From: Candidatus Pacearchaeota archaeon
GTDB taxonomy: Archaea > Nanobdellota > Nanobdellia > Pacearchaeales > GW2011-AR1
Reading direction: 5' to 3'
DNA: 42,090 nt
Assembly: GCA_009694755.1 (NCBI GenBank)
Contig: SICU01000002.1
Location: forward strand, 1-42,090
Shown here: positions 1 to 23,880 of the stretch, one piece after another
Layout of the letters: every line of letters starts with the position of its first letter
How positions within the stretch are numbered: position 1 is the first letter of the stretch
The notes under the pieces: generated by a model
Database searches by the model: none
The model's input: only the letters and a program-made list of their open reading frames with translations
What the model was told of the DNA's origin: nothing
Program-made: the position numbers and the translations under genes

Positions 1-2
1 AT

Positions 3-1196
3 TTAGGAAAAAAATATGATGTTACATTTATCGGAACTCCTAAAACTGATCGTATGAAATTCGTTTCAGAACTTATGAATAACGGAATAAATATTAAAGT
101 TTTTGGAACTGGATGGGAACAGTATTCACAATTCAAAGAAATTTATGGAGGTTTTTTAGATAAAGAGGAGTATGTTAAAGTAATTAATCAAAGTAAAATA
201 AATTTATGTTTTAATAAAAACTATTTAGGGAAGACCCATGTTATTCAGAAATTTTTTGAAATTAATGCTTGTAAATCCTTTATGCTTACAGAGTATTGTA
301 AGGGATATTCAGATTTATTTAATTTAGGTAAAGAATTAATAATGTTCAAAGATTCGAAAGAACTTCATCAAAAAATAAATTATTATCTAAATAACGAAAA
401 AGAACGCGAGATAATAGCAAAAAATGCATATCAAAAGATACTTGCAAAATATTCTTCTAAATCTGAACTTCAAAATATTTTCAAAGAAATTGAAAAATAT
501 GGAGATAAAATTCCAGAAAAGAAATTACCCTTAATAGAGAAAAAAATTAATCAATTAAAAGAACTATCTAAGAAAGATTTAATGAAAAATAATAAAGAAA
601 TTGAGAACATAGTAAAAGACGCAAGATACATTTCATTTATCAGTAAAGGAAACACAATTCTACCCTACCGAGATTTATTTCACATTACAGCTTTAGAGAT
701 GTTTGATAAAGATATAAGTTGTTGCGATGCTTATCTTTATGCACAAGGAATTGGGGATTATTTAGCTTTATATTCAAATTTAGCCTTCAAATTACTCCAA
801 CCGGAAGAATTTTCAAAATTAATACAATTAGATCAATTAGTAGTAAGAAAATCCTTCTTCATTAAAAATCTCTCTAAATTTAAGGATTTTTCAAAGGGAA
901 AATCAATAAATATGCTTAATAAAGAGAATACTGCTTTTATAACTCGTCCATTTGTAAGGTTGGTTAATTCCCCCACGTTACCTTATAGTACTATGAAAAA
1001 AATATTTTGGACAAAATATGAACATAAAATTAAATCTTACCTCTATCATAAAAATCCTCTAATTTTATGGTATTTTTATTTGACAGGATTACAATTTTTA
1101 TTAGGGAATAGATTATTATTGAGTCATCTTTTGGAGAAAGGTTGTAGCAAATTTAAGAAATCAAAAATTATTTTTTATTTATCTTCTTTCTTTTAG
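3..1196 (+). CDS. CgeB-like glycosyltransferase C-terminal half fused to an uncharacterised ~230-aa region; 5' end runs off the window
   Basis: The frame of ORF 54..1196 stays open back to nt 3 (LGKKYDVTFIGTPKTDR...), so the gene is 5'-truncated. The first ~160 residues (VFGTGW, KINLCFNKNY, FFEINACKSFMLTEY, IMFKDSKELHQKINYYLNNEKEREIIAKNAYQKILAKYS) resemble the CgeB/Glyco_trans_1_2 family by recall. I do not recognise a family for the rest, which ends in a hydrophobic segment. Confidence 0.5.
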   Translation, partial: LGKKYDVTFIGTPKTDRMKFVSELMNNGINIKVFGTGWEQYSQFKEIYGGFLDKEEYVKVINQSKINLCFNKNYLGKTHVIQKFFEINACKSFMLTEYCKGYSDLFNLGKELIMFKDSKELHQKINYYLNNEKEREIIAKNAYQKILAKYSSKSELQNIFKEIEKYGDKIPEKKLPLIEKKINQLKELSKKDLMKNNKEIENIVKDARYISFISKGNTILPYRDLFHITALEMFDKDISCCDAYLYAQGIGDYLALYSNLAFKLLQPEEFSKLIQLDQLVVRKSFFIKNLSKFKDFSKGKSINMLNKENTAFITRPFVRLVNSPTLPYSTMKKIFWTKYEHKIKSYLYHKNPLILWYFYLTGLQFLLGNRLLLSHLLEKGCSKFKKSKIIFYLSSFF

Positions 1197-2025
1197 AATT
1201 CTTTTCTTTTAAATTAATTTGTTTATTGAAGATATTTGAAATTTTAAAAAATTTTTTTATGAACTCTTTAGTACAAAAGCTAGTATACTCCTTATTTAAA
1301 TTTTGAAATAGCGTAACATATCCTACAAGAGGAGGATGTGCTATATCTTTATTAAATATTTCATTTCCATAATTTGGAAATAGTAAATTATATTTGTTTA
1401 CGGGAGAAATGCTATTTATCACCATAGGTAGAGCACATTCTTTAGAGCCATATTTATCAAAAGCAAAAATATTATTTTCCGGAACTTTAAAATCATCAAT
1501 TATAGCAATTGCATTTTCGAGACGTGTAGAAATTATTTTCAGTTCTTCTTCAAGAGGCCAGTCATCAAGCCAGTGAGCATCAAGATAAAAAAGAGTATTT
1601 TCGCCAATTAATTTGTTGTTTATCAGATAGGTTAAAAATTTAGGAGATGTTCCTTTGAAAACATGAACATTTTTGTACTTAGATAAATTTTTCTTAGCGT
1701 GTTTATAATTGAAATCATTTATTTCACACGTATATATTTTTATTTTAGGAAACATTTTGGCAAGAAGTTCAGTAGTATATCCTCTGAATGTTCCCGTTTC
1801 AACAATTGTGTCTATCTGGAAATGTTCCACTATTTCTTTGAACAAACGCATAGAGATTACATCTCCATGAAGTGGAAACTTATAAGGGGCAAATTTCCAA
1901 AGCATCTTACCAAATGTTATCTTCGCATTTCTTACAAGACGTACCCGTTTAATTGCTTGGTATGACTCGCTTTTTGCAAATCTCGAGTACATTCTGTGAA
2001 ACTCATTTCTTAGTCTTCCAATCAT
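1168..2025 (-). CDS. putative class I SAM-dependent methyltransferase
   Basis: The tracked ORF 1168..2070 opens with TTG; the first ATG is at 2025 (MIGRLRN). The VETGTFRGYTT glycine-rich motif, a downstream acidic residue (CEIN) and LDAHW..WPL resemble TylF/CmcI-type methyltransferase folds by recall. The gene lies in the glycosylation island. Confidence 0.4.
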   Translation of the reverse strand: MIGRLRNEFHRMYSRFAKSESYQAIKRVRLVRNAKITFGKMLWKFAPYKFPLHGDVISMRLFKEIVEHFQIDTIVETGTFRGYTTELLAKMFPKIKIYTCEINDFNYKHAKKNLSKYKNVHVFKGTSPKFLTYLINNKLIGENTLFYLDAHWLDDWPLEEELKIISTRLENAIAIIDDFKVPENNIFAFDKYGSKECALPMVINSISPVNKYNLLFPNYGNEIFNKDIAHPPLVGYVTLFQNLNKEYTSFCTKEFIKKFFKISNIFNKQINLKEKNSKRKKINKK

Positions 2026-2108
2026 ATGTTGAAGGATTTGAAGTCTCTTTTTAATTATTGTGGCTGACAAACGAAGATATTTTTAAAGGGGGTTTGGTAA
2101 ATAATTCA

Positions 2109-2972
2109 ATGCCTATAGTAAAAGGAAAGCCGTTCAAAGAGAAATTCCCGTTAGTTTCATCTATTATTCCCGCATATAAAGAGGAAGATAATATTGCTAC
2201 CTGCATAGAAGCTCTGCTAAACCAGACATATCCAAATATGGAAGTTATTGTCGTAGAAAATGGAAACTCCAAAGATAAAACATATGAAATAGCAAAGTCG
2301 TATGAACAGAAGACAAAGGGCAAAGTGCGAGTCTACACCATTCCAGGGTCGCAAAAAGGACCCGGAAATGCTTTAATTTACGGTTTTAAGAAAACTAAAG
2401 GAAAGATAATCTCACTAGTAGGAGCAGATTTACTCTACGGCAAAGACTACATTTCAAAAGGAATTGCTCCAATTTTAAAAGGTGAGACTGTAGGAACAAA
2501 TCACAAAGAAGAGCTGTGCAAGAATGTTTCAAACTTTTGGGCCAGGGCTTTCTTCTACAGACGCTCATTCATTCAAAAAAATGGTCTCAGCAAAGTATGC
2601 ACGCTAGTAAGAAAAGATTATCTCAAAGATAAGCTCTGGGATCCTTCTCTTGGATATGCAGATGATCAGACAATGTACTTAAAATTTGGTACCGAGTTTC
2701 CAGGATTAGATTTAGAAATTTATCAAAATAATCCTGCGTCATTTAGAGAGATTTGGGAGCACAGCACGTGGGTCGGTAAGTCTATGAATATCAATCCATT
2801 CATAGTAATCTTATCAGTTCCTTTTTGGCCGCTATACATAGTCTATAAAACAATTAAAGATTTAGTAAAAGATGAATTCTATATTCCATTCATATTATTC
2901 CTTCCAGTCTATTATTCAGTCCGTTATGCGGCTTACGTTAAAGAAGCTGTAAAGAAATTAATTCATCGATAG
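2109..2972 (+). CDS. family 2 glycosyltransferase with C-terminal membrane segment
   Basis: VSSIIPAYKEEDNIATCIEALLNQTYPNMEVIVVENGNSKDKT is a typical GT2 N-terminus. The tracked ORF opens with TTG at 2058; the first ATG is at 2109 (MPIVKG), with a TTTTTAAA box about 22 nt upstream. Confidence 0.75.
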   Translation: MPIVKGKPFKEKFPLVSSIIPAYKEEDNIATCIEALLNQTYPNMEVIVVENGNSKDKTYEIAKSYEQKTKGKVRVYTIPGSQKGPGNALIYGFKKTKGKIISLVGADLLYGKDYISKGIAPILKGETVGTNHKEELCKNVSNFWARAFFYRRSFIQKNGLSKVCTLVRKDYLKDKLWDPSLGYADDQTMYLKFGTEFPGLDLEIYQNNPASFREIWEHSTWVGKSMNINPFIVILSVPFWPLYIVYKTIKDLVKDEFYIPFILFLPVYYSVRYAAYVKEAVKKLIHR

Positions 2973-3159
2973 AATTCTTGAAAGTATATTGGGAACAAAA
3001 GAGATATCTTCAGCAGTTTCATAATTCTGATTTATAACTGATTTATTGGAAGTTAACCAGATATTTTTTATTTTATTATTCACAGCTTTCTTCTGAGAAA
3101 GTTATAAGGCTAGCGTTATTTACAATATAAAATCTAAAATATAGGATACTTAAGTCTAT

Positions 3160-4266
3160 CTAGATAGAAGATCCAGCAAAGAAGCTCTTTATATGATTAA
3201 TTACATAATCTGCTTCTGCATCAGTCATACCAGGGAAAATAGGTATTGAAAGAATAGTATCTGCATAGAGTTCAGATTTAGGAAACGCTCCCTTGCTATA
3301 TCCTAAATACTCAAATGCCTTTTGCAAATGTATTGGAACGGGATAGTGCAATCCAGAGTCAATCCCTTTTTCTTTAAGATAGTGCATAAGCTCTTCTCGC
3401 TTATCCGTTCTGATTACAAATAAATGGTATATATGATCTCTATCTTTACTAATCATTGGAACTTGAACAACATCTTTCAAAGCAGCACAGTATCTCTCAG
3501 CAATATTCTTTCTCTGAGAGTTCCAATAATCAAGATGTGGAAGTTTAAGGCGTAAAACAGTTGCTTGTAGAGTGTCTAGTCTTGAATTCACTCCTAAAAT
3601 ATCGTGGCAATATTTTTTAGACTGACCATAATTTCGAATCATTTTTATTTTGTTCATAAGGTTTGCATCGTTAGTTGTGATAAATCCCCCATCACCAAAT
3701 GCTCCTAAGTTTTTTCCAGGATAAAAAGAGAATGCAGCAGCATGACCTAAGTTGCCCGCTCTTTTGTTTTTGTACATAGATCCATGAGATTGGCAGGCAT
3801 CTTCAATAACATACAAATTGTGTCTCTTTGCTATATTCATAATCTCATCCATATCGCATACCTGACCATAAAGATGAACGGGCATAATAGCCTTAGTCTT
3901 AGGAGTTATAACCGATTCAATAAGTGAAGTGTCAATGGTAAAATCTTCTTTTGTATCAACAAGTATTGGTCTTGCACCCACAGCATAAATTGCAGCAGGA
4001 GTAGCATGGAATGTATTGGCAACAGTGATTACTTCATCTTGTGGTCCAATATTCATAGCTTTCAAAATAAGTTCAAGAGCCTGCAAACCATTAGCAACAC
4101 CAATACCATACGCAGTTCCGCAATATGTTGCAAATTCCTTTTCAAATTCTTCAACTGCCTTTCCAAGAATAAAATCATTCTTGTCAAAATGTTCTGCAAA
4201 TTGCTTCAAGAGCGCCTCACGCAAAGGTCTATGAGTCCTATTTAAATCTAAAAATGGAATGTTCAT
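3160..4266 (-). CDS. DegT/DnrJ/EryC1/StrS-family PLP-dependent sugar aminotransferase
   Basis: 368 aa. MNIPFLDL start, GKAVEEFEKEFATYCG, GVANGLQALELIL, VIEDACQSHGS and SFYPGKNLGAFGDGG (the lysine region) are hallmarks of the family. The start overlaps the upstream stop as ATGA (4263-4266). Confidence 0.9.
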   Translation of the reverse strand: MNIPFLDLNRTHRPLREALLKQFAEHFDKNDFILGKAVEEFEKEFATYCGTAYGIGVANGLQALELILKAMNIGPQDEVITVANTFHATPAAIYAVGARPILVDTKEDFTIDTSLIESVITPKTKAIMPVHLYGQVCDMDEIMNIAKRHNLYVIEDACQSHGSMYKNKRAGNLGHAAAFSFYPGKNLGAFGDGGFITTNDANLMNKIKMIRNYGQSKKYCHDILGVNSRLDTLQATVLRLKLPHLDYWNSQRKNIAERYCAALKDVVQVPMISKDRDHIYHLFVIRTDKREELMHYLKEKGIDSGLHYPVPIHLQKAFEYLGYSKGAFPKSELYADTILSIPIFPGMTDAEADYVINHIKSFFAGSSI

Positions 4267-5270
4267 AGGAATACCTCTGCTCCACCAAGTTTTTTAGACT
4301 TTTCAGCAGCCTCTAAAACCTTTACAACATTAATTCCATCTTGGCCATCACTCATACAAGTTTCAGTACCTTGTATACATTTAAAAAAGTGTTCTACTTC
4401 CGTGACTAGAGGTTGAGATAAATTAATTTTTGGAATAAGAATATCTCCCTCTCGAGTTCCAGCCTGAAACTCTGAAAAGTTATTTGGATTGGGTAGGTAT
4501 TCAATTGAGCGATCGTAAATAGTAAGTTTCTCTGATGGATTAACATCATCAAACACAATAGCTTTTTTTGTTCCACCAACAACTATCCTTCTTTCTTTAA
4601 CGGGATGTGCCCAATTTGCGTATGCACTAGCAAATATCTTTCTGGGAAACTTCATGTTAACTGAAACAATCTCATCAATAGTATCCATATAGCCCCCACC
4701 AGAATAATTCACACTTATCGGAGCGGAACCGACTAGGTACATAAAAATATACACTTCATGAGAAATCAAATCCCATAATGCACTTGCATCATATCTCACT
4801 GGACCTAAGGCAACACGACGAGCATCAATATACCTTAAGTCTCCTATTTCACCAGCATCTATTCTACGCTTAAGTTCTCGCAGGGCATGATTATATTTGA
4901 ATATGTGTCCAACCATGAGTATTTTTCGCATGCTCTTTGCCATCTCGTTAAGTTTTTCTGACTCATCAAGGTGTAAAGTCAAAGGCTTTTCTATCAGTAC
5001 ATGTTTTCCAGCCTTCAAAACTTGGGAAGCTATATCAAAATGTGTTTTTGTAGGAGTTGCAATAATAACTGCCTGCACGTCAGAGTCATTAAGAATAGTA
5101 GCAATGTCTTTAGCAAAAGTCACTTCTTTTGGCAAAGATTTTGTTGGAGGATTGAGGTCATGAACATATTTCAAAAAAGCTCCACCAAAAACACCGTCGT
5201 TGTTGAATAAATTAAGATAATTTTTACCCCAATACCCACATCCAATCAAAGCAACAATAGTTTTTTGCAT
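4263..5270 (-). CDS. Gfo/Idh/MocA-family NAD(P)-dependent sugar oxidoreductase
   Basis: MQKTIVALIGCGYWGKNY is a Rossmann N-terminus, and HVLIEKPL is the family EKP motif. The tracked ORF opens with GTG at 5309; the ATG at 5270 gives the canonical N-terminus. Confidence 0.85.
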   Translation of the reverse strand: MQKTIVALIGCGYWGKNYLNLFNNDGVFGGAFLKYVHDLNPPTKSLPKEVTFAKDIATILNDSDVQAVIIATPTKTHFDIASQVLKAGKHVLIEKPLTLHLDESEKLNEMAKSMRKILMVGHIFKYNHALRELKRRIDAGEIGDLRYIDARRVALGPVRYDASALWDLISHEVYIFMYLVGSAPISVNYSGGGYMDTIDEIVSVNMKFPRKIFASAYANWAHPVKERRIVVGGTKKAIVFDDVNPSEKLTIYDRSIEYLPNPNNFSEFQAGTREGDILIPKINLSQPLVTEVEHFFKCIQGTETCMSDGQDGINVVKVLEAAEKSKKLGGAEVFL

Positions 5271-5315
5271 AAACTTCGTAAGAATATGTCTTTTTAAGAA
5301 TATCTGCACAAAATA

Positions 5316-6353
5316 TCAATCAATCTTTCTATAAATTATCTTCTTAATTTCATCTACTGAAGGCTGAAATGGATTTGTTTTAGTGCATATGTCTTTCCTT
5401 ATCTGTTCAGCATCAGCATCATATACCTTGTTATTTTCCAAATCCAAATCTTTGAAAAGCTTTTCAAAAATTTCTACAAAATTAGAGCCAGTAACATTTT
5501 TACAAGAATCAAGCTTTGTATAAACATTGCTGTGAATGCTATTCATTTTAAGGACATCAATAAAATACAAAGATACTGCGTGACTATGAGCAAGATTATG
5601 CTGTGCACCAATAGCATGAGCAATACCATGAATAAGGCCCACAGAAGCAGTGCTTTGAACAATTCCAGCAAGAAAACCAGCAATCTGAAGTTTAGCAATA
5701 GATTCTATATTCTTAGTTTTATATACGGGTAAAGCATTTTCTAAAATCAAATCTATGACTTTAGTTGCAAGCGCATCAGTTAAAATTGTTGCATTTCTCG
5801 AAGCAAGGCCCTCAATAGCATGGGAAAGTGCATCTGCAATTGAATAGGTAATTACTTTAGAAGGAGCTTCAACGCAAAATGCCGGATTAAATATAATTAT
5901 CTCTGGAAGAAGCTTAGAAGATGTAAAAATCTTCTTTTTACTCTGTTCATCAATTAAAAGCGCAAACTGACTTGATTCAGATCCACTGCCTATAGTGGTA
6001 GGTAATAAAATGCTGTTCATATTATTTTCCATCTTCAATATTTTGGCAAGATCCATAACTGCACCACCACCAACACCCATAATGATTTCTGACTTATGCT
6101 CTTCTATTTTAATTTGAGCAGAGATTTTATCTTGTATAATTGGTTCATGATTTAATATAAAGAACTCAACATTACACCCACTTAACCATGATCTCAATAC
6201 GCTTTCTTTAGAATTGTAAACGCTCTTAGAGATAATAATAAAGACTCTTTTATCAATAATTGATTTTAGAAATCTCTCTCCAGCAAGTGCTTCAAGAATC
6301 ATTCCAGGAAAGAAAGACTTAGGGAGCAGACCAAGTATTTTAGATTCAATCAT
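5316..6353 (-). CDS. iron-containing (group III) alcohol dehydrogenase family protein
   Basis: GVGGGAVMDLAK is the nucleotide-binding motif. The His-rich metal region is SHAIEG ... GLIHGIAHAIGAQHNLAHSHA. The start overlaps the ligase stop by 8 nt. Confidence 0.8.
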   Translation of the reverse strand: MIESKILGLLPKSFFPGMILEALAGERFLKSIIDKRVFIIISKSVYNSKESVLRSWLSGCNVEFFILNHEPIIQDKISAQIKIEEHKSEIIMGVGGGAVMDLAKILKMENNMNSILLPTTIGSGSESSQFALLIDEQSKKKIFTSSKLLPEIIIFNPAFCVEAPSKVITYSIADALSHAIEGLASRNATILTDALATKVIDLILENALPVYKTKNIESIAKLQIAGFLAGIVQSTASVGLIHGIAHAIGAQHNLAHSHAVSLYFIDVLKMNSIHSNVYTKLDSCKNVTGSNFVEIFEKLFKDLDLENNKVYDADAEQIRKDICTKTNPFQPSVDEIKKIIYRKID

Positions 6354-7770
6354 GTCTGAGATCCTTTCTTTTTATTTTTCCAGAATCTGTCATAGGAATA
6401 GAATCAACAATAAATACTTTACGAGGTAATTTATATGGCTCAAGATGTTCTTTAAGTTTTTGCAATATTTGTTCTGAAGAGAATTTAGGAGAAACAACAT
6501 ATAGATGAACTACTTCTCCAAATTGAGCATCTTTAGCGCCCACAGCAACAACTTGAGCAGCTAAATCAAGGCTCTTAGCTTTATATTCTATGTCTAAAGG
6601 ATGAACTTTCTCGCCATTTACATTTATGATATCATCTATTCTGCCCATAACATGCAGATAGCCATTTGAATCAAAATAACCACAGTCTCCAGTATATAGC
6701 CAGCCATTCTTTATTTTCTGGGAAGCTACAGGATTATTCCAATATTCTTCAATAACATGTTTGCCTGCTATACATATTTCTCCATCTCTTATCTCTATAC
6801 TAGTATTAGGGCTCGCTTTTCCAACAGAGTCAATTCCTTTAATCTCCTTTGCAAAGTTAATAAATGAAGAACGAGATGCTTCAGTTAACCCATAATAATA
6901 GTTAAAATCCGATGTAGGAAGATCTTCTAGTATTATTTCAACAATTTTTTTATCTATTGGACCAGTATTTGTAAGAATCATTCGTAATTTCCTTGCATAT
7001 TTCTTAAAATCTGATCTGTGATCTTTAACAATATTTCCTAAAGTTTTAGGAGTAGCAGCAAACATAGTAGTTTTATGTTTTTCAAGAGCTTGCAAAACCT
7101 TCACCAGATGAATAAAATTTTGTTCTATTATTACAGTTCCTCCAACCATAAAAGAAACATGAATATGCCCTAAACCAAAAGAGTGAGATAGAGGCAGACC
7201 ACTTAGATAGATATCCGATGAATTATTTTTTATAAATAAGTTAATATTCTTTGTAGCTTGAACTACATTTTCATGAAGAAGTTTTACTCCCTTTGGTGAA
7301 CCAGTAGTACCGGAGGTATAAATAATTGTAGAAACATCTTTAGAAGAGACGGTTACATGGTACTCTTGTGGAGAGTAATATTTCTTCTCAGATTTCTTGA
7401 GCAAGGTAGTTTGCCCAGCAAGGCCTATTCTTTTCATTTTATCTTCTAATTTATCTTCATAAATGAGAAAGTCTGGAGAGCAGTCTTTAACTTCAAATAA
7501 GAGATTTTCATCAGAGATATTTGTAGGAATGATAAATGCAGTGCAAGCCGCTTTAAGAATCCCAAAATAACATACAATAAAATCAATACTATTATCTAAA
7601 ATAATTCCTATCCTCTGCCCTTTACAACTATTTGAGAAATAGTTCCTGACTTGATTTGACATATCCTCAAGTTGTTTATATGTTACAGACTGTCCATCAG
7701 AAATAACTGCTATTTTTTCAGGATATAGAGAAGATGATTTTTCAAGAAAAGAATGAATTGTTTCATCCAT
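6346..7770 (-). CDS. ANL-superfamily adenylate-forming ligase (acyl-CoA/acyl-carrier-protein ligase)
   Basis: 474 aa with the motifs YTSGTTGSPKGV, YYGLTE, YTGD and the C-terminal SGKIKRKDL. It overlaps the ACP gene stop by 8 nt. Confidence 0.9.
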   Translation of the reverse strand: MDETIHSFLEKSSSLYPEKIAVISDGQSVTYKQLEDMSNQVRNYFSNSCKGQRIGIILDNSIDFIVCYFGILKAACTAFIIPTNISDENLLFEVKDCSPDFLIYEDKLEDKMKRIGLAGQTTLLKKSEKKYYSPQEYHVTVSSKDVSTIIYTSGTTGSPKGVKLLHENVVQATKNINLFIKNNSSDIYLSGLPLSHSFGLGHIHVSFMVGGTVIIEQNFIHLVKVLQALEKHKTTMFAATPKTLGNIVKDHRSDFKKYARKLRMILTNTGPIDKKIVEIILEDLPTSDFNYYYGLTEASRSSFINFAKEIKGIDSVGKASPNTSIEIRDGEICIAGKHVIEEYWNNPVASQKIKNGWLYTGDCGYFDSNGYLHVMGRIDDIINVNGEKVHPLDIEYKAKSLDLAAQVVAVGAKDAQFGEVVHLYVVSPKFSSEQILQKLKEHLEPYKLPRKVFIVDSIPMTDSGKIKRKDLRHD

Positions 7771-7978
7771 TTTTTGATTGTAATATCTTTAAAATATCTT
7801 GAGCGGACTCTATTGATACTACTTGATCAACAGTAAGAGACACATTAAAGACCGATTCAACTTCACTAACGAGCTCCATATGGGCAAAAGAGTCCCATCG
7901 TTCATATTCTGATTGCTTCTTTGTAGAATCATAACTGCCTAAAACTTTGATAAAAATACCTTTCAATTTTTCTTCCAT
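7763..7978 (-). CDS. acyl carrier protein (phosphopantetheine-binding)
   Basis: 71 aa and acidic. WDSFAHMELV matches the DS(L/F) phosphopantetheine attachment site followed by helix II. It lies immediately downstream of AcpS and upstream of the ligase. Confidence 0.8.
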   Translation of the reverse strand: MEEKLKGIFIKVLGSYDSTKKQSEYERWDSFAHMELVSEVESVFNVSLTVDQVVSIESAQDILKILQSKNG

Positions 7979-8322
7979 ATATCCTCCACAATAGCAAACG
8001 CAATTGCTGTATCTTTTGAATGGCTCATACTTAAATGAATTTTATATTTCTTATTTAAACCTTTGTTTCTAAATGCCACTTGAGGGAATTTTCTCACTTT
8101 TATTATTTCAATATCCTCAAAAAGAAGAGTTATATCTAAAGATGAAAACGCTTTTTTTACAGCTTCCTTCCCACAAAATCTGGCAGCAAAATGTTGTTCA
8201 GGATTTGGGAGTGAATTACAGTAAGTTATCTCTTGGGTTGTAAATAATTTATTTGACAATTCTTTTTTTATATTCTTAAATCGAGAGGTTTTTTCGCAGT
8301 CAACACCAACGCCAAGAATCAC
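7963..8322 (-). CDS. acpS: holo-[acyl-carrier-protein] synthase (AcpS-type 4'-phosphopantetheinyl transferase)
   Basis: 119 aa. ILGVGVDCEKTSRF, FAARFCGKEAVKKAF and HLSMSHSKDTAIAFAIVE follow the AcpS pattern. The GTG start overlaps the upstream stop (GTGA at 8319-8322). Confidence 0.8.
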   Translation of the reverse strand: MILGVGVDCEKTSRFKNIKKELSNKLFTTQEITYCNSLPNPEQHFAARFCGKEAVKKAFSSLDITLLFEDIEIIKVRKFPQVAFRNKGLNKKYKIHLSMSHSKDTAIAFAIVEDIWKKN

Positions 8323-8981
8323 CTTAACTCACTACCCTTTAAGTTTCTAACTTTACGTAAAGGATTCCCTACATAAATACCAGGAGAATTAATTGGTTTT
8401 GAGATAACTGATCCAGCACCTATAATAATATTATCTCCAATAGCTATTCCTGGAAGAATGGAAGAGTTCTCTCCTATTGCCGAGTTGCTTCCAATAGTAA
8501 TTTTGTCTAAAATATTACAAGGAAGTCTCATCATATATTTATCAAGAGCCATTGATACATGAGGTCCAATAAATGTATTCTCTCCTATAATTGTGTGCTC
8601 TCCAATAAGCGCCCCAGCTTGTATGCGAACTCCTTTATGAAGAACAACATCAAACTCAACAATAGCGTGCTTCCCTACTCTTACTCTTTCATGCAAAACG
8701 CAGCCTTCTCTAACAATAGCTGCATCGGACACAATAGTTTCTTTCCCTATATTTGTTCCAGCATAAATTATGGCATTTGTTCCAATAAGAGATCCTTCAC
8801 CAATTATAGCAGGTCCTCTTTCATGCAATGTTAATGTTGAACTTGCAATCATTTTAGGTTGCTTGCCAATAATGGCACCATCTTGAATAATAACATTATC
8901 TTCAATAATAGTACCAGGATAAATAATGACATTCTGTCCAATAGAAACGTTCTTTCCCTTTATTTCCATGTTACTACCCAT
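8319..8981 (-). CDS. hexapeptide-repeat (left-handed beta-helix) acyltransferase
   Basis: 220 aa of repeated [LIV]-G-x4 units (IGQNVIIYPGTIIEDNVIIQDGAIIGK ... IGSNSAIGENSSILPGIAIGDNIIIGAGSVI). An alternative ATG lies at 8969. Confidence 0.85.
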   Translation of the reverse strand: MGSNMEIKGKNVSIGQNVIIYPGTIIEDNVIIQDGAIIGKQPKMIASSTLTLHERGPAIIGEGSLIGTNAIIYAGTNIGKETIVSDAAIVREGCVLHERVRVGKHAIVEFDVVLHKGVRIQAGALIGEHTIIGENTFIGPHVSMALDKYMMRLPCNILDKITIGSNSAIGENSSILPGIAIGDNIIIGAGSVISKPINSPGIYVGNPLRKVRNLKGSELR

Positions 8982-10120
8982 CGAACCATTCTATCTATAG
9001 CAAACATACCGTCCCAAGGAGAATCAAAAAGAGTCATAGATCCAAGTTTAGGACACCTATCAACACCAAATAAAGTCATATCATCAATAAACTGTGTTCT
9101 TTTAATATTATTCTCCATAGCAATTCCAACAGTTTGCTGATGTCTGCTATTTAAATGTTTCAAATTATCAAGTGATCTGACAAATATAACTCTTGAAAAG
9201 CAAGGGTCTGCAAGACCTTTTTCATCAGAATAAATAACAGTCCAATCAGTATTTTTAGAAGCGAAGACTGTCCCAGTAATAGTATACTCCTCTCTAAGCG
9301 TTAAAATCTCTAGTTTCTTTCCAGGATCAGTAAATCCTTTAGGAATCATCAGACGATTAACTTTGTCTAATTCCTTTGAAAGAATTTGAGCGAATTCTAA
9401 AGCATTTCCATCAACAAAAATAGTGTGGGGAGATGAACAAGCAGTTTGGTCAAAGGTAGAAATATCAAAAGCAATTTTTCTTGCCGACTCAATAGTTGCA
9501 TTCTTTTTATCTACAATAGCATAAGAATATTTTGGGCCATACACAATATCTTCACAAAAAACATCTTTTTTATAATGCATAATAGCCTCAATAGCTTCCT
9601 TCCCACCCCAAGCTATTCTTATATCAGCAGCTTTCGATATCTCTTCATTTCTTTGCTTGTCTTTACTATCAATAGAGACAATTGCAAATGTCTGAGCAAA
9701 TTCTTTGCCTTTAATTGCAGAGGTATCTACTCGTTCAAATACTTCAGCCAGCTTCTTAAGTTCTTGATAGTATGAATATGGAGCTCTTACCAAAGATACA
9801 TTTTTTGTAATCATAGCTTGAATTAAGGAATATAATCCAAGAGTTTTAACATTTCCCGCAACCCAATGAACAGCTAAACCTCTAGGTTGAACATGATATA
9901 AACGACCATCTTTTAGTTCTATAAAATCATCAAGTATCTTATAACTTCCCCGTAAAGCGAGATCTAACATCATTTTTAGATTATCTTTTGACATAAAGTT
10001 TTTGACTTCTTTTTCTTCTATAGATTTACCAACTGCATCCAAATAGTCAAGAATATCATCAATTTTCAGTGCATGAATATATTCTCTTTTATTTTTTAAA
10101 TCCTGAATTATTTGATTCAT
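8960..10120 (-). CDS. LuxC-like acyl-CoA/acyl-carrier reductase (aldehyde-forming)
   Basis: HWVAGNVKTLGLYSLIQAMITKNVSLVRAP and the Cys region QTACSSPHTIFV resemble the LuxC family by recall. The tracked ORF opens with TTG at 10138; the ATG at 10120 overlaps the LuxE-like stop as ATGA. Confidence 0.75.
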   Translation of the reverse strand: MNQIIQDLKNKREYIHALKIDDILDYLDAVGKSIEEKEVKNFMSKDNLKMMLDLALRGSYKILDDFIELKDGRLYHVQPRGLAVHWVAGNVKTLGLYSLIQAMITKNVSLVRAPYSYYQELKKLAEVFERVDTSAIKGKEFAQTFAIVSIDSKDKQRNEEISKAADIRIAWGGKEAIEAIMHYKKDVFCEDIVYGPKYSYAIVDKKNATIESARKIAFDISTFDQTACSSPHTIFVDGNALEFAQILSKELDKVNRLMIPKGFTDPGKKLEILTLREEYTITGTVFASKNTDWTVIYSDEKGLADPCFSRVIFVRSLDNLKHLNSRHQQTVGIAMENNIKRTQFIDDMTLFGVDRCPKLGSMTLFDSPWDGMFAIDRMVRWVVTWK

Positions 10121-11169
10121 TTTAAAGTATCTCCACAACCCTTTAGTTCAGCATTTTTTGCTCGCTCTTTGAAAATAAAATACTTTCCTTTTCTTCCGCA
10201 TAAGCAGTCATCTTCACCAATGATTTTACCGATATCATCTGTAAGGAGAGAAATTCCTGGGTAGCTATGAGGAACAGGGCTGATTAACTGTATAAATCCT
10301 TCAGAAGTACTCTCTAATGTACCAACATCTCTCATAATTACATCAGAATAATTTGGAACATGTTTGTAACCTTGTTCACAATCAATGTAAACAGTACCTA
10401 ATTGTTCAGTCATGCCATAAATATCATAAATTTTTACAGACGCAAGGCTTGAACTAACTGTTTTATTGAAAACATCTTTTGAGACACTGATATCACTAAG
10501 TTTTTTCCATCCTCCAATATGAAGAATAACACTTTCTGGAAAGTTTATTGGTGAGATATCCTTTACTATTTTGTAGAGTAACCAAGTAAAACCAAAAAAG
10601 CAAACTGGTTGACCCTTTAATTTAATTAAAATTTCCTCTAGAGCTCGCGTTTTAAGATGCAAATCATCATCTAGAATAAAAGTAACTGATTTAGCAAAAG
10701 GCAACATGCCCCTAATAGCAGAACCTCTTGATGACAATGAATGTTCATTAGACTTTATTGTATTTTCAGTATCAAAAACAATAAGATTGATTCTTTGGTT
10801 GCCAATAAAAGAGGAGACTATAGAATTAAGGCATTTTACTTGCCTTTTTCTAGTTAATTCATCAAGATAAATCATACTTGGATTATTTCCAGTAGTAGCG
10901 CTAGATTTAACAACAGTAACTATATCTTCATCTTTAACAGAAATAAGTTTCATTTTTTTGAATAAATTAACTGAAATAAATGGTAATTTTTCAATATCAG
11001 AATTAAATGTATTATTCCAGCCTTTAGAATCACAAATCTTTCTAAACTCAATGGAATGATTATAATGAAAATTGATTGCTTCTGTAATTGCAGGAACAAA
11101 ATACTTATCCTTTTCTTTCTTTTCTAAATTAAAAGGCTGCTGCTCTAAAAGTAAATCTGTTCGATCCAT
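10117..11169 (-). CDS. LuxE-like acyl-protein synthetase / adenylating enzyme
   Basis: LPFISVNLFKKMKL, VKSSATTGNNPS, LHIGGWKKL and the C-terminal ELKGCGDT resemble the LuxE family by recall. It is the first gene of the minus-strand operon, with TTTTTATA about 25 nt upstream. Confidence 0.75.
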   Translation of the reverse strand: MDRTDLLLEQQPFNLEKKEKDKYFVPAITEAINFHYNHSIEFRKICDSKGWNNTFNSDIEKLPFISVNLFKKMKLISVKDEDIVTVVKSSATTGNNPSMIYLDELTRKRQVKCLNSIVSSFIGNQRINLIVFDTENTIKSNEHSLSSRGSAIRGMLPFAKSVTFILDDDLHLKTRALEEILIKLKGQPVCFFGFTWLLYKIVKDISPINFPESVILHIGGWKKLSDISVSKDVFNKTVSSSLASVKIYDIYGMTEQLGTVYIDCEQGYKHVPNYSDVIMRDVGTLESTSEGFIQLISPVPHSYPGISLLTDDIGKIIGEDDCLCGRKGKYFIFKERAKNAELKGCGDTLK

Positions 11170-11193
11170 GGTTAATTTTGCTCAAATAACAAC

Positions 11194-11201
11194 TATAAAA
11201 A
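11194..11201 (-). promoter_or_regulatory. TATA-like box (TTTTTATA on minus strand) for the LuxE-led operon
   Basis: It lies 25-32 nt upstream of the ATG at 11169. This matches the spacing seen at other operon-first genes here. Confidence 0.35.
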
Positions 11202-11240
11202 CAAGCGATGCGACACATTTTAAACCTATGGTTAACTAGT

Positions 11241-11248
11241 TTTAAATA
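11241..11248 (+). promoter_or_regulatory. TATA-like box (TTTAAATA) for the GT4/GT-C pair
   Basis: It lies 21-28 nt upstream of the ATG at 11269. Confidence 0.35.
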
Positions 11249-11268
11249 CAGAGTTTTATTAAAAATAT

Positions 11269-12405
11269 ATGCGTATTTTAGAGCTTACAAACTATACTGC
11301 TGGTTCATGCGGAGTAAGTAAGCGAGTTATTAGAGAGTCTCAAATGCTTGCTAAAGAAGGAAATATAGTGAGAATATTTTCTTCAAATTTAGTTAAAGGC
11401 AATTCTCAAATTTGTCAACAATTTGAAAAAATAGGAGATATACAAATAACTAGATTTAATGCTAAAAAATTAGGGGGAGAAAGTTTTCTTAATTGGAGTT
11501 TTGAGAAAGAAGCCATTTCATTTATGCCAGATATTATCATAGCCCATGCATATCGTCATTTACACACGCTTAAAGCACTAAAAATAGCCTCTAAAATAAA
11601 AGTTCCTTGTCTGATAGTTACTCATGCTCCTTTCAAAAGAGAAAAAACGAGGAATTTATCGCAAAATTTAATCGTATGGTTGTATGATTTATTAATTGGT
11701 AGAAAAACAATTGCTAAGTTCGATAAAGTTTTAATTATTGCTCCCTGGGAAGTAAAATATTTATTAAATTTAGGGATTTCCAAAGATAAATTAGTTTATT
11801 CACCTAACGGAATAGACATAGAATTCTTTAAAAGAAAAATTGAATATAATAAATCTAGACTAGTTATTTACACAGGTAGAATTGCCCCAATAAAAAATTT
11901 AGAAGTTTTAATTGATTCAATGAAATTAGTTAATAGCGAAGTAAATCTTTTAATATACGGCCCAGCAGAAAAAGATTATTTAATAAAATTAGCTAATTTA
12001 GTTATAAAAAATAAACTTCAAAGAAGAGTTTCTATAATAAATAAAGAATATGACTTACAACAGCAGTTAAAACTTCTTGATAAATCAGAAATATTCGTAC
12101 TTCCCTCAAAAAGCGAAGGAATGCCACAGTCATTAATTGAAGCAATGGCTAGAGCAAAGATAGTAATTGGGAGCGATATTATATCCATAAATTCTATAAT
12201 TCATAATGGCGATAATGGTTTTACTTTTAAAGAAAATGATTCGAAAGACCTTGCTAAAAAAATAAATTTAGTTTTAGAGCTCAATTCATCTAAAAGAATA
12301 GCTATTAAAAAAGCAGCAGTCTCTTCAGTCAAAGCATTTAAATGGCCTTTAATAATAAAAGATCTTAATAATCTTCTAATAACGGTTAAAAAAAATCATG
12401 GTTGA
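11269..12405 (+). CDS. GT-B fold glycosyltransferase (family 4/1)
   Basis: 378 aa. The C-terminal half has FVLPSKSEGMPQSLIEAMARAKIVIGSD, the E-x7-E region typical of GT4. Confidence 0.85.
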   Translation: MRILELTNYTAGSCGVSKRVIRESQMLAKEGNIVRIFSSNLVKGNSQICQQFEKIGDIQITRFNAKKLGGESFLNWSFEKEAISFMPDIIIAHAYRHLHTLKALKIASKIKVPCLIVTHAPFKREKTRNLSQNLIVWLYDLLIGRKTIAKFDKVLIIAPWEVKYLLNLGISKDKLVYSPNGIDIEFFKRKIEYNKSRLVIYTGRIAPIKNLEVLIDSMKLVNSEVNLLIYGPAEKDYLIKLANLVIKNKLQRRVSIINKEYDLQQQLKLLDKSEIFVLPSKSEGMPQSLIEAMARAKIVIGSDIISINSIIHNGDNGFTFKENDSKDLAKKINLVLELNSSKRIAIKKAAVSSVKAFKWPLIIKDLNNLLITVKKNHG

Positions 12406-13867
12406 AAAAACAATAAACGAAAAACAAAACTATTATTTAATATTTTTAATTTTAATTGGTGCAACAATTAGAATATACTTCCTTAATTTAGTAAAAAATC
12501 AAGCTCACTGGTGGGATTCATTAGCCTATGGTAGTTTAGCAAAAAATATGATTTATCATAAATGGGATGATGTTCCATTTTTAATTCACGAATCAATTAT
12601 TCGTCCCCCTTTATTGCCACTTATTTGGAGTTGGTTAATTAGAATAGGGTCTTCAGATTATGCGATTATTTTTATTACTAATATTATTCCTTCAATAATT
12701 TCAATATACTTAATTTATCTAATTGCTAAAGAAATGTATGGGAGCACTATAGGAATATTTTCAGCCATATTTGCTTCAATATCCTGGATTTATTTATTTT
12801 ATTCAGCAAGAGCTCTTACAGATATTCCTTCAATGTTTCTGGCATTAGCAAGCATATATTTCTTTATAAAATCTTATGAATTATTTAATATCAAATTCTG
12901 GAGTTTATCCGTTTTTTGTTTAGCCTTATCAGTTTTATTTAGGTACTCTTACGCATTATTTGCTTTAATATATATAATATTTCTTATATTCATACATAAA
13001 ACTCAATTAATTAAAAAAAAGAAATTTTGGTTGGGGGGAATATTAGGAGCAACACCTATAATCTTTTTCATAATTTTTAATTTAATCAGTTATGGTTCTA
13101 TTTTACCAGCTGCCGAAGAATATACTTCTAGTGCAAGCGAGAAAACAAACTTTGCTTGGTACACTTTATCATTCATAAATCACATTTTACGTTTTCCTAT
13201 GTTAATTTTATTTTATATTGGGGGATTGATTATCCTTCTAAAAACTATAATGAGCTATGGACTCATAGGAAAATTTAAAGAGTCAAAAATGCATGTATTT
13301 AATCTATTATTAGTAATTATCTCTCTTTCATTTTATATATTTTTCTTAAAAGCTTCAGAAGATAGATATCTATTAGGGATTTCTAGTGCCTTATTTATAT
13401 TTTCAGCAATTGGACTTCACAGTATTTTTAAAATTTTATTACCTTATAATAAGAAGATAGCTTTTGGAGTTTGCATTTTTATTTTAATATGGTCAATTTA
13501 TAGCCAAATTCTTTTTGCAAATACTTTAATTTTAGATAAAAAAGAGTCCTATAGACCAATGAAAGACGCATTTAATTGGGTATATCACAATACTCCAGAA
13601 AATACACTAATTGCAGGTGATTGGGCAGAACCATATGCAATATATTATTCAGAACGCAAAGTCCAAATATTGCCGCAAGATCTGAACTTTAGCAATTTTA
13701 CTCTTGAAGCAGATTATGTTATCCTTACAGCAGTTCATTCTCCAAATGAAAAAGTAGGTAATTATGTAAGAAAGTTAGCTGAGGATGGACAACTAATTTT
13801 ATCTAAAGTTTTCTTTTTTGATGAGGCTCAAAAAAATCCAGCAGTAGTTATTTATAAGCGAAAATAA
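12398..13867 (+). CDS. polytopic GT-C glycosyltransferase, ArnT/PMT (GT39/GT83)-like
   Basis: 489 aa with many TM helices. The N-terminal first-loop region (NQAHWWDSLAYGSLAKNM...IRPPLLPLIW) and a soluble C-terminal domain match the ArnT/PMT_2 architecture by recall. It overlaps the GT4 stop by 8 nt. Confidence 0.55.
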   Translation: MVEKTINEKQNYYLIFLILIGATIRIYFLNLVKNQAHWWDSLAYGSLAKNMIYHKWDDVPFLIHESIIRPPLLPLIWSWLIRIGSSDYAIIFITNIIPSIISIYLIYLIAKEMYGSTIGIFSAIFASISWIYLFYSARALTDIPSMFLALASIYFFIKSYELFNIKFWSLSVFCLALSVLFRYSYALFALIYIIFLIFIHKTQLIKKKKFWLGGILGATPIIFFIIFNLISYGSILPAAEEYTSSASEKTNFAWYTLSFINHILRFPMLILFYIGGLIILLKTIMSYGLIGKFKESKMHVFNLLLVIISLSFYIFFLKASEDRYLLGISSALFIFSAIGLHSIFKILLPYNKKIAFGVCIFILIWSIYSQILFANTLILDKKESYRPMKDAFNWVYHNTPENTLIAGDWAEPYAIYYSERKVQILPQDLNFSNFTLEADYVILTAVHSPNEKVGNYVRKLAEDGQLILSKVFFFDEAQKNPAVVIYKRK

Positions 13868-13869
13868 TC

Positions 13870-14520
13870 TCAAGATTTAATAGCTAAAATTGCAATTTCG
13901 TTACCTTTCGAATTATGTCGAAGATATTCTAGCGTATCAATATATTTAGCTAAAACATTTACTTTTTTTCTTAATAAATATTTTGCGAAAAAATGAATAT
14001 ATAATGCAATTAATTCAATAATCGAGCCACCTGCAAATATTTTTTTCAAAATAAATCCTTTATTTGTTAAAATTTTAGTAATAGAGTTTATTGAATAATG
14101 CCTTTCATGTTGAACATACCTTACAGGGTTAAGATAGCTAAGAAGAGTATCATTTGGTACACAAATAATTAGATGTCCCTTCCTTTTTAGAACTCTATAA
14201 ATTTCATCGACAGCTCCTTTATCATTTTTTATATGTTCAAGTACATCAAGCATAATCACTTGCGTCAAGGACTCATTTTTAAATGGAAGTTTTGTAGCAT
14301 CACATTGAAGTTTATTCAAGGATTTATTCTCTTTTCCAAGGTTTTTTTTATCCAAATCCGAAGAAATAAATTCGTTATTATTTAAAAAAAGATTATTTTC
14401 AATCCACTGCATCTCACCTGCCCCGATATTCAATGTCTTACCTTTAATTTTAGTATCTATCATTGACGCACAAATTCTTTCACGTCCATACAATTTCAAA
14501 TTATTTTTTATTTTTTGCAT
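13870..14520 (-). CDS. class I SAM-dependent methyltransferase (Methyltransf_11-like)
   Basis: TLNIGAGE is motif I. VIMLDVLEHIKNDKGAVDEIYRVLKRKGHLIICVPN covers motifs II-III. It is the last gene of the AglB operon and overlaps the upstream gene by 20 nt. Confidence 0.8.
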   Translation of the reverse strand: MQKIKNNLKLYGRERICASMIDTKIKGKTLNIGAGEMQWIENNLFLNNNEFISSDLDKKNLGKENKSLNKLQCDATKLPFKNESLTQVIMLDVLEHIKNDKGAVDEIYRVLKRKGHLIICVPNDTLLSYLNPVRYVQHERHYSINSITKILTNKGFILKKIFAGGSIIELIALYIHFFAKYLLRKKVNVLAKYIDTLEYLRHNSKGNEIAILAIKS

Positions 14521-23352: not shown

Positions 23353-23880
23353 CTAATGCACTTTCATAATTTTTCTAAATATTATAGACCAAACAACAAA
23401 TAATAAAATATATGCCCAAATTCCAGACATAAATCCAAATATTTTCACGGGATTATTTTGAAAGTAATCTCCAAACCATCTAACTAATAAAATAAACGGA
23501 ACAGTTGTATAAATAACTGGACGCATAGTAATTGGCATAGTTTTCATCGCTAATTCAGCAGATTTTTTAGAAAGTTCCATAGACTTTTGAGGATTAGATT
23601 TATACAATTTCAATTCTTCTTGCACAAGTTTTTGTTCTTCTTTTATTTGTTTCAATAAATCTTGGTCAGTAGTATGCTTGTGAAGTAAAGTCGTCAAGAA
23701 ATTCAAAAAACCAGTAATTATAATTAATCCAAAAGTAACATTCCAATCAAGTAATTTTCCAAGAGACGGATTAAGTGCCGAATGAACACTTTCTTTTACA
23801 ATAGGAGTTTTTTCCCAGAACATTGCGACGACTAAACCTAGAGCCATCACCATAAACATTATTGTTAGTATTCCTTTCAT
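23353..23880 (-). CDS. DUF106/EMC3-TMCO1-like membrane protein (archaeal YidC/Oxa1-like insertase)
   Basis: 175 aa. TM1, then a charged coiled coil (LLKQIKEEQKLVQEELKLYKSNPQK...), then TM2 and TM3. It sits directly downstream of secY, the usual archaeal position. Confidence 0.75.
   Translation of the reverse strand: MKGILTIMFMVMALGLVVAMFWEKTPIVKESVHSALNPSLGKLLDWNVTFGLIIITGFLNFLTTLLHKHTTDQDLLKQIKEEQKLVQEELKLYKSNPQKSMELSKKSAELAMKTMPITMRPVIYTTVPFILLVRWFGDYFQNNPVKIFGFMSGIWAYILLFVVWSIIFRKIMKVH

Follow-up and report, generated by a model that had tools for sequence, protein, structure and literature searches.

A nine-gene operon of a DPANN-type archaeon predicted to make an acyl group on a carrier protein for an amino sugar of the surface glycan

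The window analysed here is the whole 42,090-nucleotide (nt) stretch of Candidatus Pacearchaeota contig SICU01000002.1, and we focus on an operon on its minus strand, where the listing of open reading frames (ORFs) has nine consecutive ORFs running from 11169 to 3160. Pfam gathering thresholds are passed by eight of the nine proteins (E-values 1e-15 to 1e-115), and the ninth, an acyl carrier protein (ACP), was identified by profile search. We consider it reasonably probable that the nine genes make up a self-contained module which uses a carrier protein to N-acylate a sugar of the surface glycan of this archaeon. The genes, in the order in which they are read, are the following:

10117..11169, minus strand: LuxE-like acyl-protein synthetase, 350 amino acids (aa) (Pfam PF04443, PDB 7xc6_E)
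8960..10120, minus strand: LuxC-like acyl-thioester reductase, 386 aa from the ATG at 10120 (mechanical ORF 8960-10138; Pfam PF05893, PDB 7xc6_A)
8319..8981, minus strand: left-handed beta-helix (LbH; hexapeptide) N-acyltransferase, 220 aa (216 aa from Met5; Pfam Hexapep, QdtC 3fs8)
7963..8322, minus strand: AcpS-type 4'-phosphopantetheinyl transferase, 119 aa, GTG start (Pfam ACPS, TIGR00556)
7763..7978, minus strand: dedicated ACP, 71 aa (ortholog profile against PDB)
6346..7770, minus strand: ANL-superfamily adenylating ligase, 474 aa (Pfam AMP-binding and AMP-binding_C)
5316..6353, minus strand: iron-type alcohol dehydrogenase (Fe-ADH), 345 aa (Pfam ADH_Fe_C, Fe-ADH)
4263..5270, minus strand: Gfo/Idh/MocA oxidoreductase (Gfo), 335 aa from Met14 (ORF to 5309; Pfam GFO_IDH_MocA)
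3160..4266, minus strand: DegT/DnrJ/EryC1 pyridoxal-phosphate-dependent sugar aminotransferase (DegT), 368 aa, 3-aminotransferase type (Pfam PF01041)

The initial annotation had listed the same nine minus-strand genes, families and overlaps, and the ORF listing, the family searches (eight by Pfam thresholds, the ACP by its ortholog profile) and our recomputed overlaps bear it out: LuxE and LuxC share 4 nt (ATGA, 10117-10120), LuxC and the hexapeptide gene 22 nt (8960-8981), the hexapeptide gene and AcpS 4 nt (GTGA, 8319-8322), AcpS and ACP 16 nt (7963-7978), ACP and ligase 8 nt (7763-7770), ligase and Fe-ADH 8 nt (6346-6353), and Gfo and DegT 4 nt (4263-4266). The motifs it quoted are likewise all present in the proteins (SSATTG, GGWKK, GCGD, HWVAGNV, ACSSPH, WDSFAHMELV, TSGTTGSPKG, YGLTE, GKIKRK and GVGGGAVMDLAK). 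The likeliest start of LuxC is the ATG at 10120 (386 aa), which creates the ATGA overlap, rather than the TTG at 10138, and that of Gfo is Met14 (5270, 335 aa); both starts agree with the public gene calls on the source contig and on L001, a 95-kb contig from Nanoarchaeota that is 63% identical. Given the Met14 start, the spacer between Fe-ADH and Gfo is 45 nt, so two transcription units are possible (LuxE to Fe-ADH, then Gfo-DegT). For the hexapeptide gene, Met5 (8969, 216 aa) is a possible start, which matches only the 216-aa call of L001. Such a gene cluster is far beyond chance, and its arrangement is also kept in relatives.

The LuxE-like protein matches Pfam LuxE (PF04443) with an E-value of 8e-64 and 216.4 bits (cutoff 24.9), its residues 4-349 spanning positions 18-386 of the 391-position profile, and the LuxC-like protein matches Pfam LuxC (PF05893) with 2.5e-79 and 267.5 bits (cutoff 21). 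Both fail the corresponding NCBIfam equivalog models: 80.1 bits against a cutoff of 550 for LuxE (NF052244, bioluminescence) and 122 bits against 750 for LuxC (NF052251). The two proteins are family members, not LuxE and LuxC orthologs; of the LuxE/LuxC identity initially assigned, the family membership and the relay cysteines hold, and equivalence to the luminous enzymes does not. A true LuxCDE-type fatty acid reductase is ruled out by these equivalog scores and by the absence of LuxD, LuxA and LuxB.

Comparison with the LuxC-LuxE structure of luminous bacteria (7xc6) shows the same fold families and the same residues for a Cys-to-Cys acyl relay. The LuxE-like protein matches 7xc6_E (Photobacterium phosphoreum LuxE) at 2e-17, with Cys345 (in KGCGD; codon at 10135-10137) aligned with the Cys of KGCS, and the LuxC-like protein matches 7xc6_A at 1.9e-21, with Cys228 (in TACSSPH; codon 9437-9439) aligned with the Cys of LuxC QQACFST. 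The C-terminal Cys of LuxE in 7xc6 is, we take it, the acylated residue; by alignment, Cys345 is presumed to be the acyl-carrying residue of the LuxE-like protein and Cys228 the catalytic residue of the LuxC-like protein. Cys345, GGWKK and SS-T are invariant across 21 LuxE-like homologs. The nucleotide-binding motifs are SSATTG, GGWKK and YGMTE in the LuxE-like protein, and HWVAGNV, from 9866-9868, in the LuxC-like protein. Unlike the luminous pair, the window pair presumably acts on a short di-acid and passes its aldehyde on to Fe-ADH for further reduction. A second Cys motif, C-x-C-G-R-x-G-K-[YA]-F, is invariant in the LuxE-like family and served as our scan pattern (C322-x-C324 in the window, 10198-10206); the motif is not in the aligned region of Photobacterium LuxE (7xc6_E).

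As a single sequence the ACP fails Pfam PP-binding (18.0 bits, cutoff 20.8), whereas a profile of 12 orthologs searched against PDB finds 2lml, named a 'putative acyl carrier protein', with an E-value of 1e-12, together with another 48 chains of carrier proteins, both ACPs (many of them AcpP) and D-alanyl carrier proteins. W28-D29-S30, invariant in the orthologs, lines up with the DSL of AcpP, whose Ser bears the phosphopantetheine, so that the 71-aa protein does have a modifiable Ser, as the carrier-protein assignment had implied; the predicted attachment residue is Ser30 (codon 7889-7891, in WDSFAHMELV). The neighbouring AcpS passes both Pfam ACPS (1.3e-15, 57.9 bits, cutoff 25) and TIGR00556 (66.9 bits, cutoff 45.35). 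The ligase matches Pfam AMP-binding (3.8e-60), plus AMP-binding_C, and its best solved relatives are MenE (7e-55), oxalate-CoA ligase (2.5e-46) and malonyl-CoA synthetase, the substrates of these relatives being succinylbenzoate, oxalate and malonate. Fe-ADH matches Pfam ADH_Fe_C (4.7e-25) and Fe-ADH (3.3e-17) and, in PDB, the alcohol dehydrogenase domain of AdhE, methanol dehydrogenase and FucO; it carries a GGGAVMD motif and the D/H metal-ligand motifs. The combination of two carboxyl-activating enzymes (ligase and LuxE) with a reductase and an alcohol dehydrogenase argues for a di-acid substrate.

The remaining genes point to a 3-amino sugar. DegT matches Pfam PF01041 (1.8e-115), with QdtB (3frk, 4e-113) and WbpE (1e-73) as top solved functional matches. 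Gfo, whose gene is translationally coupled to that of DegT, matches Pfam GFO_IDH_MocA (2.2e-23) and PDB 7bvj (1.3e-19), an entry that the literature confirms as GnnA; its best NCBIfam model is the archaeal UDP-N-acetylglucosamine (UDP-GlcNAc) 3-dehydrogenase (1.8e-37, 129.5 bits, below the cutoff of 450). The window has no RmlA, RmlB or ketoisomerase (QdtA) genes, which makes conversion of UDP-GlcNAc to a 3-keto and then a 3-amino sugar the most economical acceptor route. A dTDP-Qui3N acceptor, to which the top matches QdtB and QdtC could point, was set aside on the same absence and because Gfo is coupled to the aminotransferase, and a kanosamine route of the NtdC/NtdA type was judged less likely (NtdA 2.5e-52 against QdtB 4e-113). 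PmdC (9azo) proved to be an unrelated lignin-pathway dehydrogenase.

The hexapeptide protein matches Pfam Hexapep (4e-29), and its best solved relative is QdtC (3fs8, 5e-25, residues 7-215), a 3-amino-sugar N-acetyltransferase that uses acetyl-CoA. Matches to LpxA and LpxD are weaker (E about 1e-7 to 1e-8). These enzymes, which are LbH proteins too, take a hydroxyacyl group from ACP and attach it to a UDP-amino-sugar, a precedent for the last step proposed below, but the sequence relation is weak and the window protein is nearer the QdtC type. LpxA of organisms that have GnnA and GnnB N-acylates UDP-GlcNAc3N. The initial annotation had compared the oxidoreductase, aminotransferase and acyltransferase with WbpB/WbpE/WbpD (UDP-GlcNAc3NAcA). 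The proposed order of dehydrogenase, aminotransferase and N-acyltransferase is indeed the same, as it is for QdtB/QdtC (dTDP-Qui3NAc) and GnnA/GnnB (UDP-GlcNAc3N); the window proteins, however, are closer to QdtB, QdtC and GnnA (the aminotransferase is QdtB/WbpE-like, the LbH transferase QdtC-like and Gfo GnnA-like). The differences from these pathways are the proposed acyl donor, which would be acyl-ACP and not acetyl-CoA, and the dTDP-6-deoxy route, which is unlikely in the window.

LuxE-like relatives number in the hundreds at 45-63% identity, and they occur in at least 546 species in a scan of one genome per species; the closest named relative is from a Nanoarchaeota metagenome-assembled genome (MAG). 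Scoring the nine window proteins against the fetched loci gave two groups, one consisting of the window and L001-L014 and the other of most of L015-L084. In the window group the LuxE, LuxC and Fe-ADH scores are high and the ligase is more variable; its hosts are Nanoarchaeota, Aenigmatarchaeota, Micrarchaeota, an unclassified archaeon, the Candidate Phyla Radiation (CPR; Beckwithbacteria and Woesebacteria), Chloroflexi and Gammaproteobacteria MAGs. 13 non-redundant loci have in common the core order AcpS-ACP-ligase-FeADH-LuxE-LuxC. In the second group Fe-ADH is not adjacent, and LuxC and ligase share only ∼21-22% identity with those of the window; this group corresponds to the ACP, FabG, ligase, LuxE and LuxC genes known from bacterial flagellin glycosylation islands. 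By these comparisons the six-gene core is a distinct subfamily, apart from the type found without Fe-ADH in flagellin islands. L023 (Promethearchaeota) and L070 (Clostridium) are intermediate between the groups. The ACP-ligase-LuxE-LuxC set of L023, on a 700-kb Asgard contig, is nearest to that of Clostridium chromiireducens (L070), and no adjacent Fe-ADH was detected there. The Aenigmatarchaeota ligases (L002:7430-8947 and L007 at about 2.9-4.4 kb), 27% identical to that of the window, group with L023 and L070, whereas LuxE, LuxC and Fe-ADH of these loci are of the window type; the loaded acid may vary by lineage.

Far from rare, the module is widespread among DPANN archaea, the CPR and other bacteria, and databases already label its members 'acyl-protein synthetase'. 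As for a bacterial origin, which phylogenies had been expected to address, neighbour-joining trees show archaeal and bacterial members of the window group interleaved; this would be compatible with repeated inter-domain transfer, and the trees give no direction for it.

In the neighbourhood survey of archaeal and bacterial loci the core is conserved, and in every locus examined it adjoins amino-sugar genes, although not always the same ones. Gfo and DegT are beside the core in the window, L001, L002, L008 and L014, NeuB and a CMP-transferase in L004 and L013, and a polysaccharide deacetylase (PF01522) in L007 (8987-9799), L012 (2026-3294) and L013 (5869-6795). A window-type hexapeptide gene directly adjoins LuxC in L001, L006, L008, L009 and L014, and heads the ACP operon in L002. 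In L004 (12371-13180) and L010 (12509-13291) the gene after LuxC encodes an Antibiotic_NAT protein (PF02522, the aminoglycoside-3-N-acetyltransferase family), which is accompanied by a DUF4910/DUF2172/HTH_47 protein in place of Gfo, DegT and the hexapeptide protein. With a weak GNAT match beside the module in L012, the N-acyltransferases are thus of three folds (LbH, Antibiotic_NAT and weakly GNAT). This suggests that the core is a portable acyl-donor module, able also to re-acylate a de-N-acetylated sugar. The LuxC homolog of L008 (9500-10802, Woesebacteria) is in two ORFs, possibly a frameshift or a pseudogene.

The window also encodes ribosomal proteins L19e, L32e and S4e, SecY, an EMC3/TMCO1-like insertase, an IF-2B-family protein and STT3/AglB. 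L19e, L32e, S4e, AglB and other such genes identify the host as an archaeon, and it is one of the DPANN type (Nanoarchaeota-like). As initially described, the operon sits in an archaeal glycosylation island; by Pfam, the island is centred on AglB and includes a flippase and glycosyltransferases:

54-1196, plus strand: Glyco_trans_1_2 protein (Pfam)
1168-2070, minus strand: methyltransferase-like ORF (Pfam)
2058-2972, plus strand: family 2 glycosyltransferase (GT2; Pfam)
11170..11268, no strand: divergent intergenic region between LuxE and GT4, 99 nt, A+T-rich with TATA-like stretches (read from the sequence)
11269-12405, plus strand: family 4 glycosyltransferase (GT4; Pfam)
12398-13867, plus strand: PMT_2/ArnT-like GT-C membrane glycosyltransferase (Pfam; conserved in L001 and L085)
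13870-14520, minus strand: methyltransferase (Pfam)
14501-17280, minus strand: three GT2 genes (Pfam)
17277-18488, minus strand: Wzx-type flippase (Pfam Polysacc_synt)
18485-21166, minus strand: AglB/STT3 oligosaccharyltransferase (Pfam STT3 and STT3-PglB_core)

The gene order of the high-coordinate side (11269..21166) is identical in L001 and in L085, a 90%-identical relative from another sample, and counterparts of the low-coordinate flank (54..2972) come after DegT in L001. The PMT_2/ArnT-like protein could add a sugar from a dolichol-phosphate carrier at the outer face.

The closest described system is that of Vibrio cholerae O1, in which VC0248-VC0252 (wbeK-O, or rfbKLMNO) are the tetronate genes, responsible for the 3-deoxy-L-glycero-tetronyl N-acyl group of perosamine. 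RfbK is a carrier protein, RfbL is a ligase described as activating 2,4-dihydroxybutanoate, WbeM is an Fe-ADH, and WbeN is a fusion of LuxC and LuxE of 826 aa. The O1 antigen is lost or altered in wbeL, wbeM and wbeN mutants, and mutants of wbeM and wbeN lose the O1 phage receptor. The perosamine pathway of this cluster is described as resting solely on homology comparisons. We compared the V. cholerae side by literature description, taking four of the five families from the papers. All five families of the V. cholerae acyl module (carrier protein, ANL ligase, Fe-ADH, LuxE/LuxC and acyltransferase) are found in the window by Pfam, with the ortholog profile for the carrier protein, so that the family set named in the initial annotation is supported by these descriptions. 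RfbO (VC0252), whose family the V. cholerae papers do not state, we take to be an acetyltransferase.

Besides having the same family set, the two systems have ligases of nearly equal length (471 aa for RfbL/WbeL and 474 aa in the window) and presumably serve one purpose, joining a hydroxyacyl group in amide linkage to an amino sugar of the surface glycan; the order ACP-ligase-FeADH-LuxE-LuxC-acyltransferase is seen in bacterial relatives of the window (L006, L008 and L014). The window differs in having separate LuxE and LuxC genes where V. cholerae has a fusion, an AcpS of its own, a permuted order (LuxE-LuxC-Hexa-AcpS-ACP-ligase-FeADH), an acceptor made by 3-amination with Gfo and DegT instead of the 4-amination of GDP-perosamine, and an archaeal host with an AglB context instead of an O-antigen. 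The flagellin islands of Aeromonas group II and Enterobacteriaceae have ACP, FabG, AMP-ligase, LuxE and LuxC genes, which were read as fatty-acid genes with a liposugar suggested as product. There too, ACP, ANL ligase and a LuxE/LuxC pair adjoin amino-sugar or nonulosonic-acid genes, and LuxE is ∼40% identical to that of the window; these islands, however, have no Fe-ADH and usually no AcpS, according to the papers they have a FabG-type ketoreductase instead, and their LuxC and ligase are only ∼21% and ∼22% identical to the window proteins.

In the archaeal glycosylation literature, including a 2024 review of N-glycosylation, we found no description of the module and no mention of carrier proteins, which agrees with the initial statement that no described archaeal glycan pathway uses it. 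The literature on 4-hydroxybutanoyl nonulosonic acids gave no biosynthetic lead. Archaea are regarded as lacking an ACP system, and ACP-based fatty-acid synthesis is thought to be missing in them. The archaeon Methanoculleus marisnigri offers a precedent: in its N-glycan, glyceric acid is the N-acyl substituent of a 2,3-diamino uronic acid.

The genes can be arranged into a pathway. AcpS would turn the 71-aa apo-ACP into its holo form at Ser30, and the ANL ligase would adenylate one carboxyl of a short di-acid (of the malate, succinate, malonate or tartronate type) and load it on ACP as a thioester. The LuxE-like protein would adenylate the other carboxyl, take the acyl group on Cys345 and hand it to Cys228 of the LuxC-like protein, which would reduce it to the aldehyde with NAD(P)H; Fe-ADH would then convert the aldehyde to the alcohol, the product being an omega-hydroxyacyl-ACP. 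In parallel, the Gfo-type dehydrogenase would oxidise C-3 of a nucleotide sugar, most likely UDP-GlcNAc, and the QdtB/WbpE-like aminotransferase would yield the 3-amino sugar, to whose amine the QdtC-like hexapeptide transferase would move the hydroxyacyl group from ACP. The neighbouring glycosyltransferases, the flippase and AglB would finally install the sugar in an N-linked glycan. In a variant, reduction by LuxE, LuxC and Fe-ADH would come before loading: the free di-acid would become a hydroxy acid, which the ligase would then put on ACP, as one paper describes for V. cholerae RfbL. At the level of sequence there is thus support for the initial proposal, in which ACP would carry a di-acid or similar acid whose reduction gives the hydroxyacyl group for an amino sugar.

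Several rival explanations have to be weighed against this pathway. LuxE, LuxC, ligase and ACP might handle a long-chain fatty acid, as canonical LuxE and LuxC do, with a lipidated sugar ('liposugar'), fatty aldehyde or fatty alcohol as product. This is how the Aeromonas and Enterobacteriaceae papers interpret their ACP, ligase, LuxE and LuxC genes, and the ligase has as its top NCBIfam match a generic 'long-chain-fatty-acid--CoA ligase' subfamily, though its score is under the cutoff, as those of the LuxE-like and LuxC-like proteins are far under theirs. Loci of the window subfamily invariably include an Fe-ADH, and their LuxC and ligase set them apart from the flagellin-island type; the nearest solved ligases use short carboxy-acids; there are no Fab genes in the window, in a domain thought to be without ACP-based fatty-acid synthesis; and a mono-acid would need no second carboxyl-activating enzyme. 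We regard the fatty-acid reading as quite improbable. It is also unlikely, in our view, that the halves of the operon are separate, with Gfo, DegT and the hexapeptide protein making a 3-acetamido sugar (of the UDP-GlcNAc3NAc or Qui3NAc type) via acetyl-CoA and the product of ACP, ligase, LuxE, LuxC and Fe-ADH being transferred by an enzyme outside the operon. The acetyl-CoA dependence of QdtC, the 45-nt gap between Fe-ADH and Gfo-DegT, and a separate hexapeptide-Gfo-DegT unit kept in Aenigmatarchaeota speak for such a split. But the hexapeptide gene lies inside the acyl half, between LuxC and AcpS, overlapping them by 22 nt and 4 nt, and in L002, L006, L008, L009 and L014 its ortholog is the one that accompanies the ACP module. 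In L002, which has both kinds, the window protein is 39% identical (124 bits) to the product of the gene heading the ACP operon and 32% identical (64 bits) to the Gfo/DegT-linked one; in L009, with no Gfo or DegT detected within 14.7 kb, the hexapeptide gene still flanks LuxC; L004 and L010, which lack it, have Antibiotic_NAT after LuxC; and the window holds no other candidate acyl-ACP transferase. On these alignments and gene orders, the hexapeptide transferase belongs to the acyl module and not to Gfo and DegT.

It is extremely unlikely that the segment is bacterial DNA misjoined to an archaeal contig or was inserted very recently from a foreign source. Its total GC is higher (0.32-0.37 at 3-11 kb) than that of the flanking glycosyltransferase genes (0.26-0.28 at 1-3000 and 11269-19000), ACP and AcpS are regarded as bacterial, and the closest relatives include CPR and Gammaproteobacteria. 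The LuxE-GT4 junction at ∼11.2 kb and the island order, however, recur in three independent assemblies (the source itself, in five contigs, L085 and L001), and the operon is much like the housekeeping genes in total GC (0.335 vs 0.333) as well as in GC at third codon positions (GC3; 0.22 for the operon, 0.20 for ribosomal and housekeeping genes and 0.20 for glycosyltransferase genes). Because GC3 is nearly equal, the difference between operon and flanks lies in codon positions 1 and 2: the low GC of the flanking glycosyltransferase genes reflects amino-acid composition, not codon bias. Synteny in three assemblies and a host-like GC3 together indicate that the segment is neither a chimera nor a recent import; the chimeric join that the initial annotation had named as a danger, and recent transfer with it, are refuted within the limits of such data.

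Some points weigh against the carrier-protein pathway itself. The genes fit several short di-acids and either order of reduction and loading, the variant that reduces the free acid before loading being equally compatible. The Gfo score, far under the cutoff of the UDP-GlcNAc 3-dehydrogenase model, makes the acceptor sugar uncertain, and LbH transferases that use acyl-ACP are indistinguishable by sequence from those that use acyl-CoA, the donor of QdtC, the closest solved one, being acetyl-CoA. The predicted product may sit on another surface polymer and not on an N-glycan made by AglB. The likeness to V. cholerae WbeK-O is one of family content as described, and the V. cholerae pathway is itself homology-based in the literature. 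We infer the nature of the acid, the use of the carrier protein in the transfer and the resulting glycan. To our knowledge, no enzyme of the module has been biochemically characterised anywhere.

A broader hypothesis, to which we give somewhat less than an even chance, is that DPANN archaea run a dedicated AcpS/ACP thioester pathway through which a 2,3-diamino sugar of AglB-made N-glycans receives an omega-hydroxyacyl group in amide linkage. No earlier step of archaeal protein glycosylation known to depend on a carrier protein would precede it. The hypothesis includes repeated exchange of the module between DPANN archaea and the CPR or other bacteria, and similar enzymes acting on a shorter di-acid could account for N-glyceroyl-type decorations as in M. 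marisnigri.

The cluster is neither unique nor categorically new: all its proteins are in known, widespread families with generic database labels, and the organism is uncultured. The overall logic of the acyl module was proposed for bacteria in 1995. The window version is a variant with separate LuxE and LuxC, its own AcpS, coupling to 3-amination and an archaeal AglB context. If the proposed pathway is true, synthesis of a thioester-tethered hydroxy acid on a carrier protein would be a chemistry undescribed for archaeal protein glycosylation, and the ACP/AcpS pair would gain a concrete job in a domain thought to manage without ACP. As the core plugs into varied amino-sugar pathways, solving it once would annotate many surface-glycan loci and, on family content, the gain would extend to the V. 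cholerae O1 antigen pathway, known from homology and mutants only. For episymbiotic organisms with small genomes the surface glycan likely matters for host contact, and an investment of nine genes is notable.

The A+T-rich region between the divergent LuxE and GT4 genes (11170..11268) is presumed from its sequence to be a promoter region. A scan for bacterial promoters and terminators gave fewer sites than in shuffled sequence, the scan being bacterial and thus uninformative for an archaeon, and an Rfam scan of the entire window gave zero non-coding RNA matches. Between AglB and SecY are genes for a SpoIIM-family membrane protein (21232-22089) and for the EMC3/TMCO1-like (YidC-type) insertase (23353-23880). 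The IF-2B-family protein (22150-22956) and a nucleoside/AMP-phosphorylase-like protein (40151-41629; Glycos_transf_3, PYNP_C) resemble parts of the archaeal AMP/ribose-1,5-bisphosphate salvage pathway, which has often been noted in DPANN genomes.

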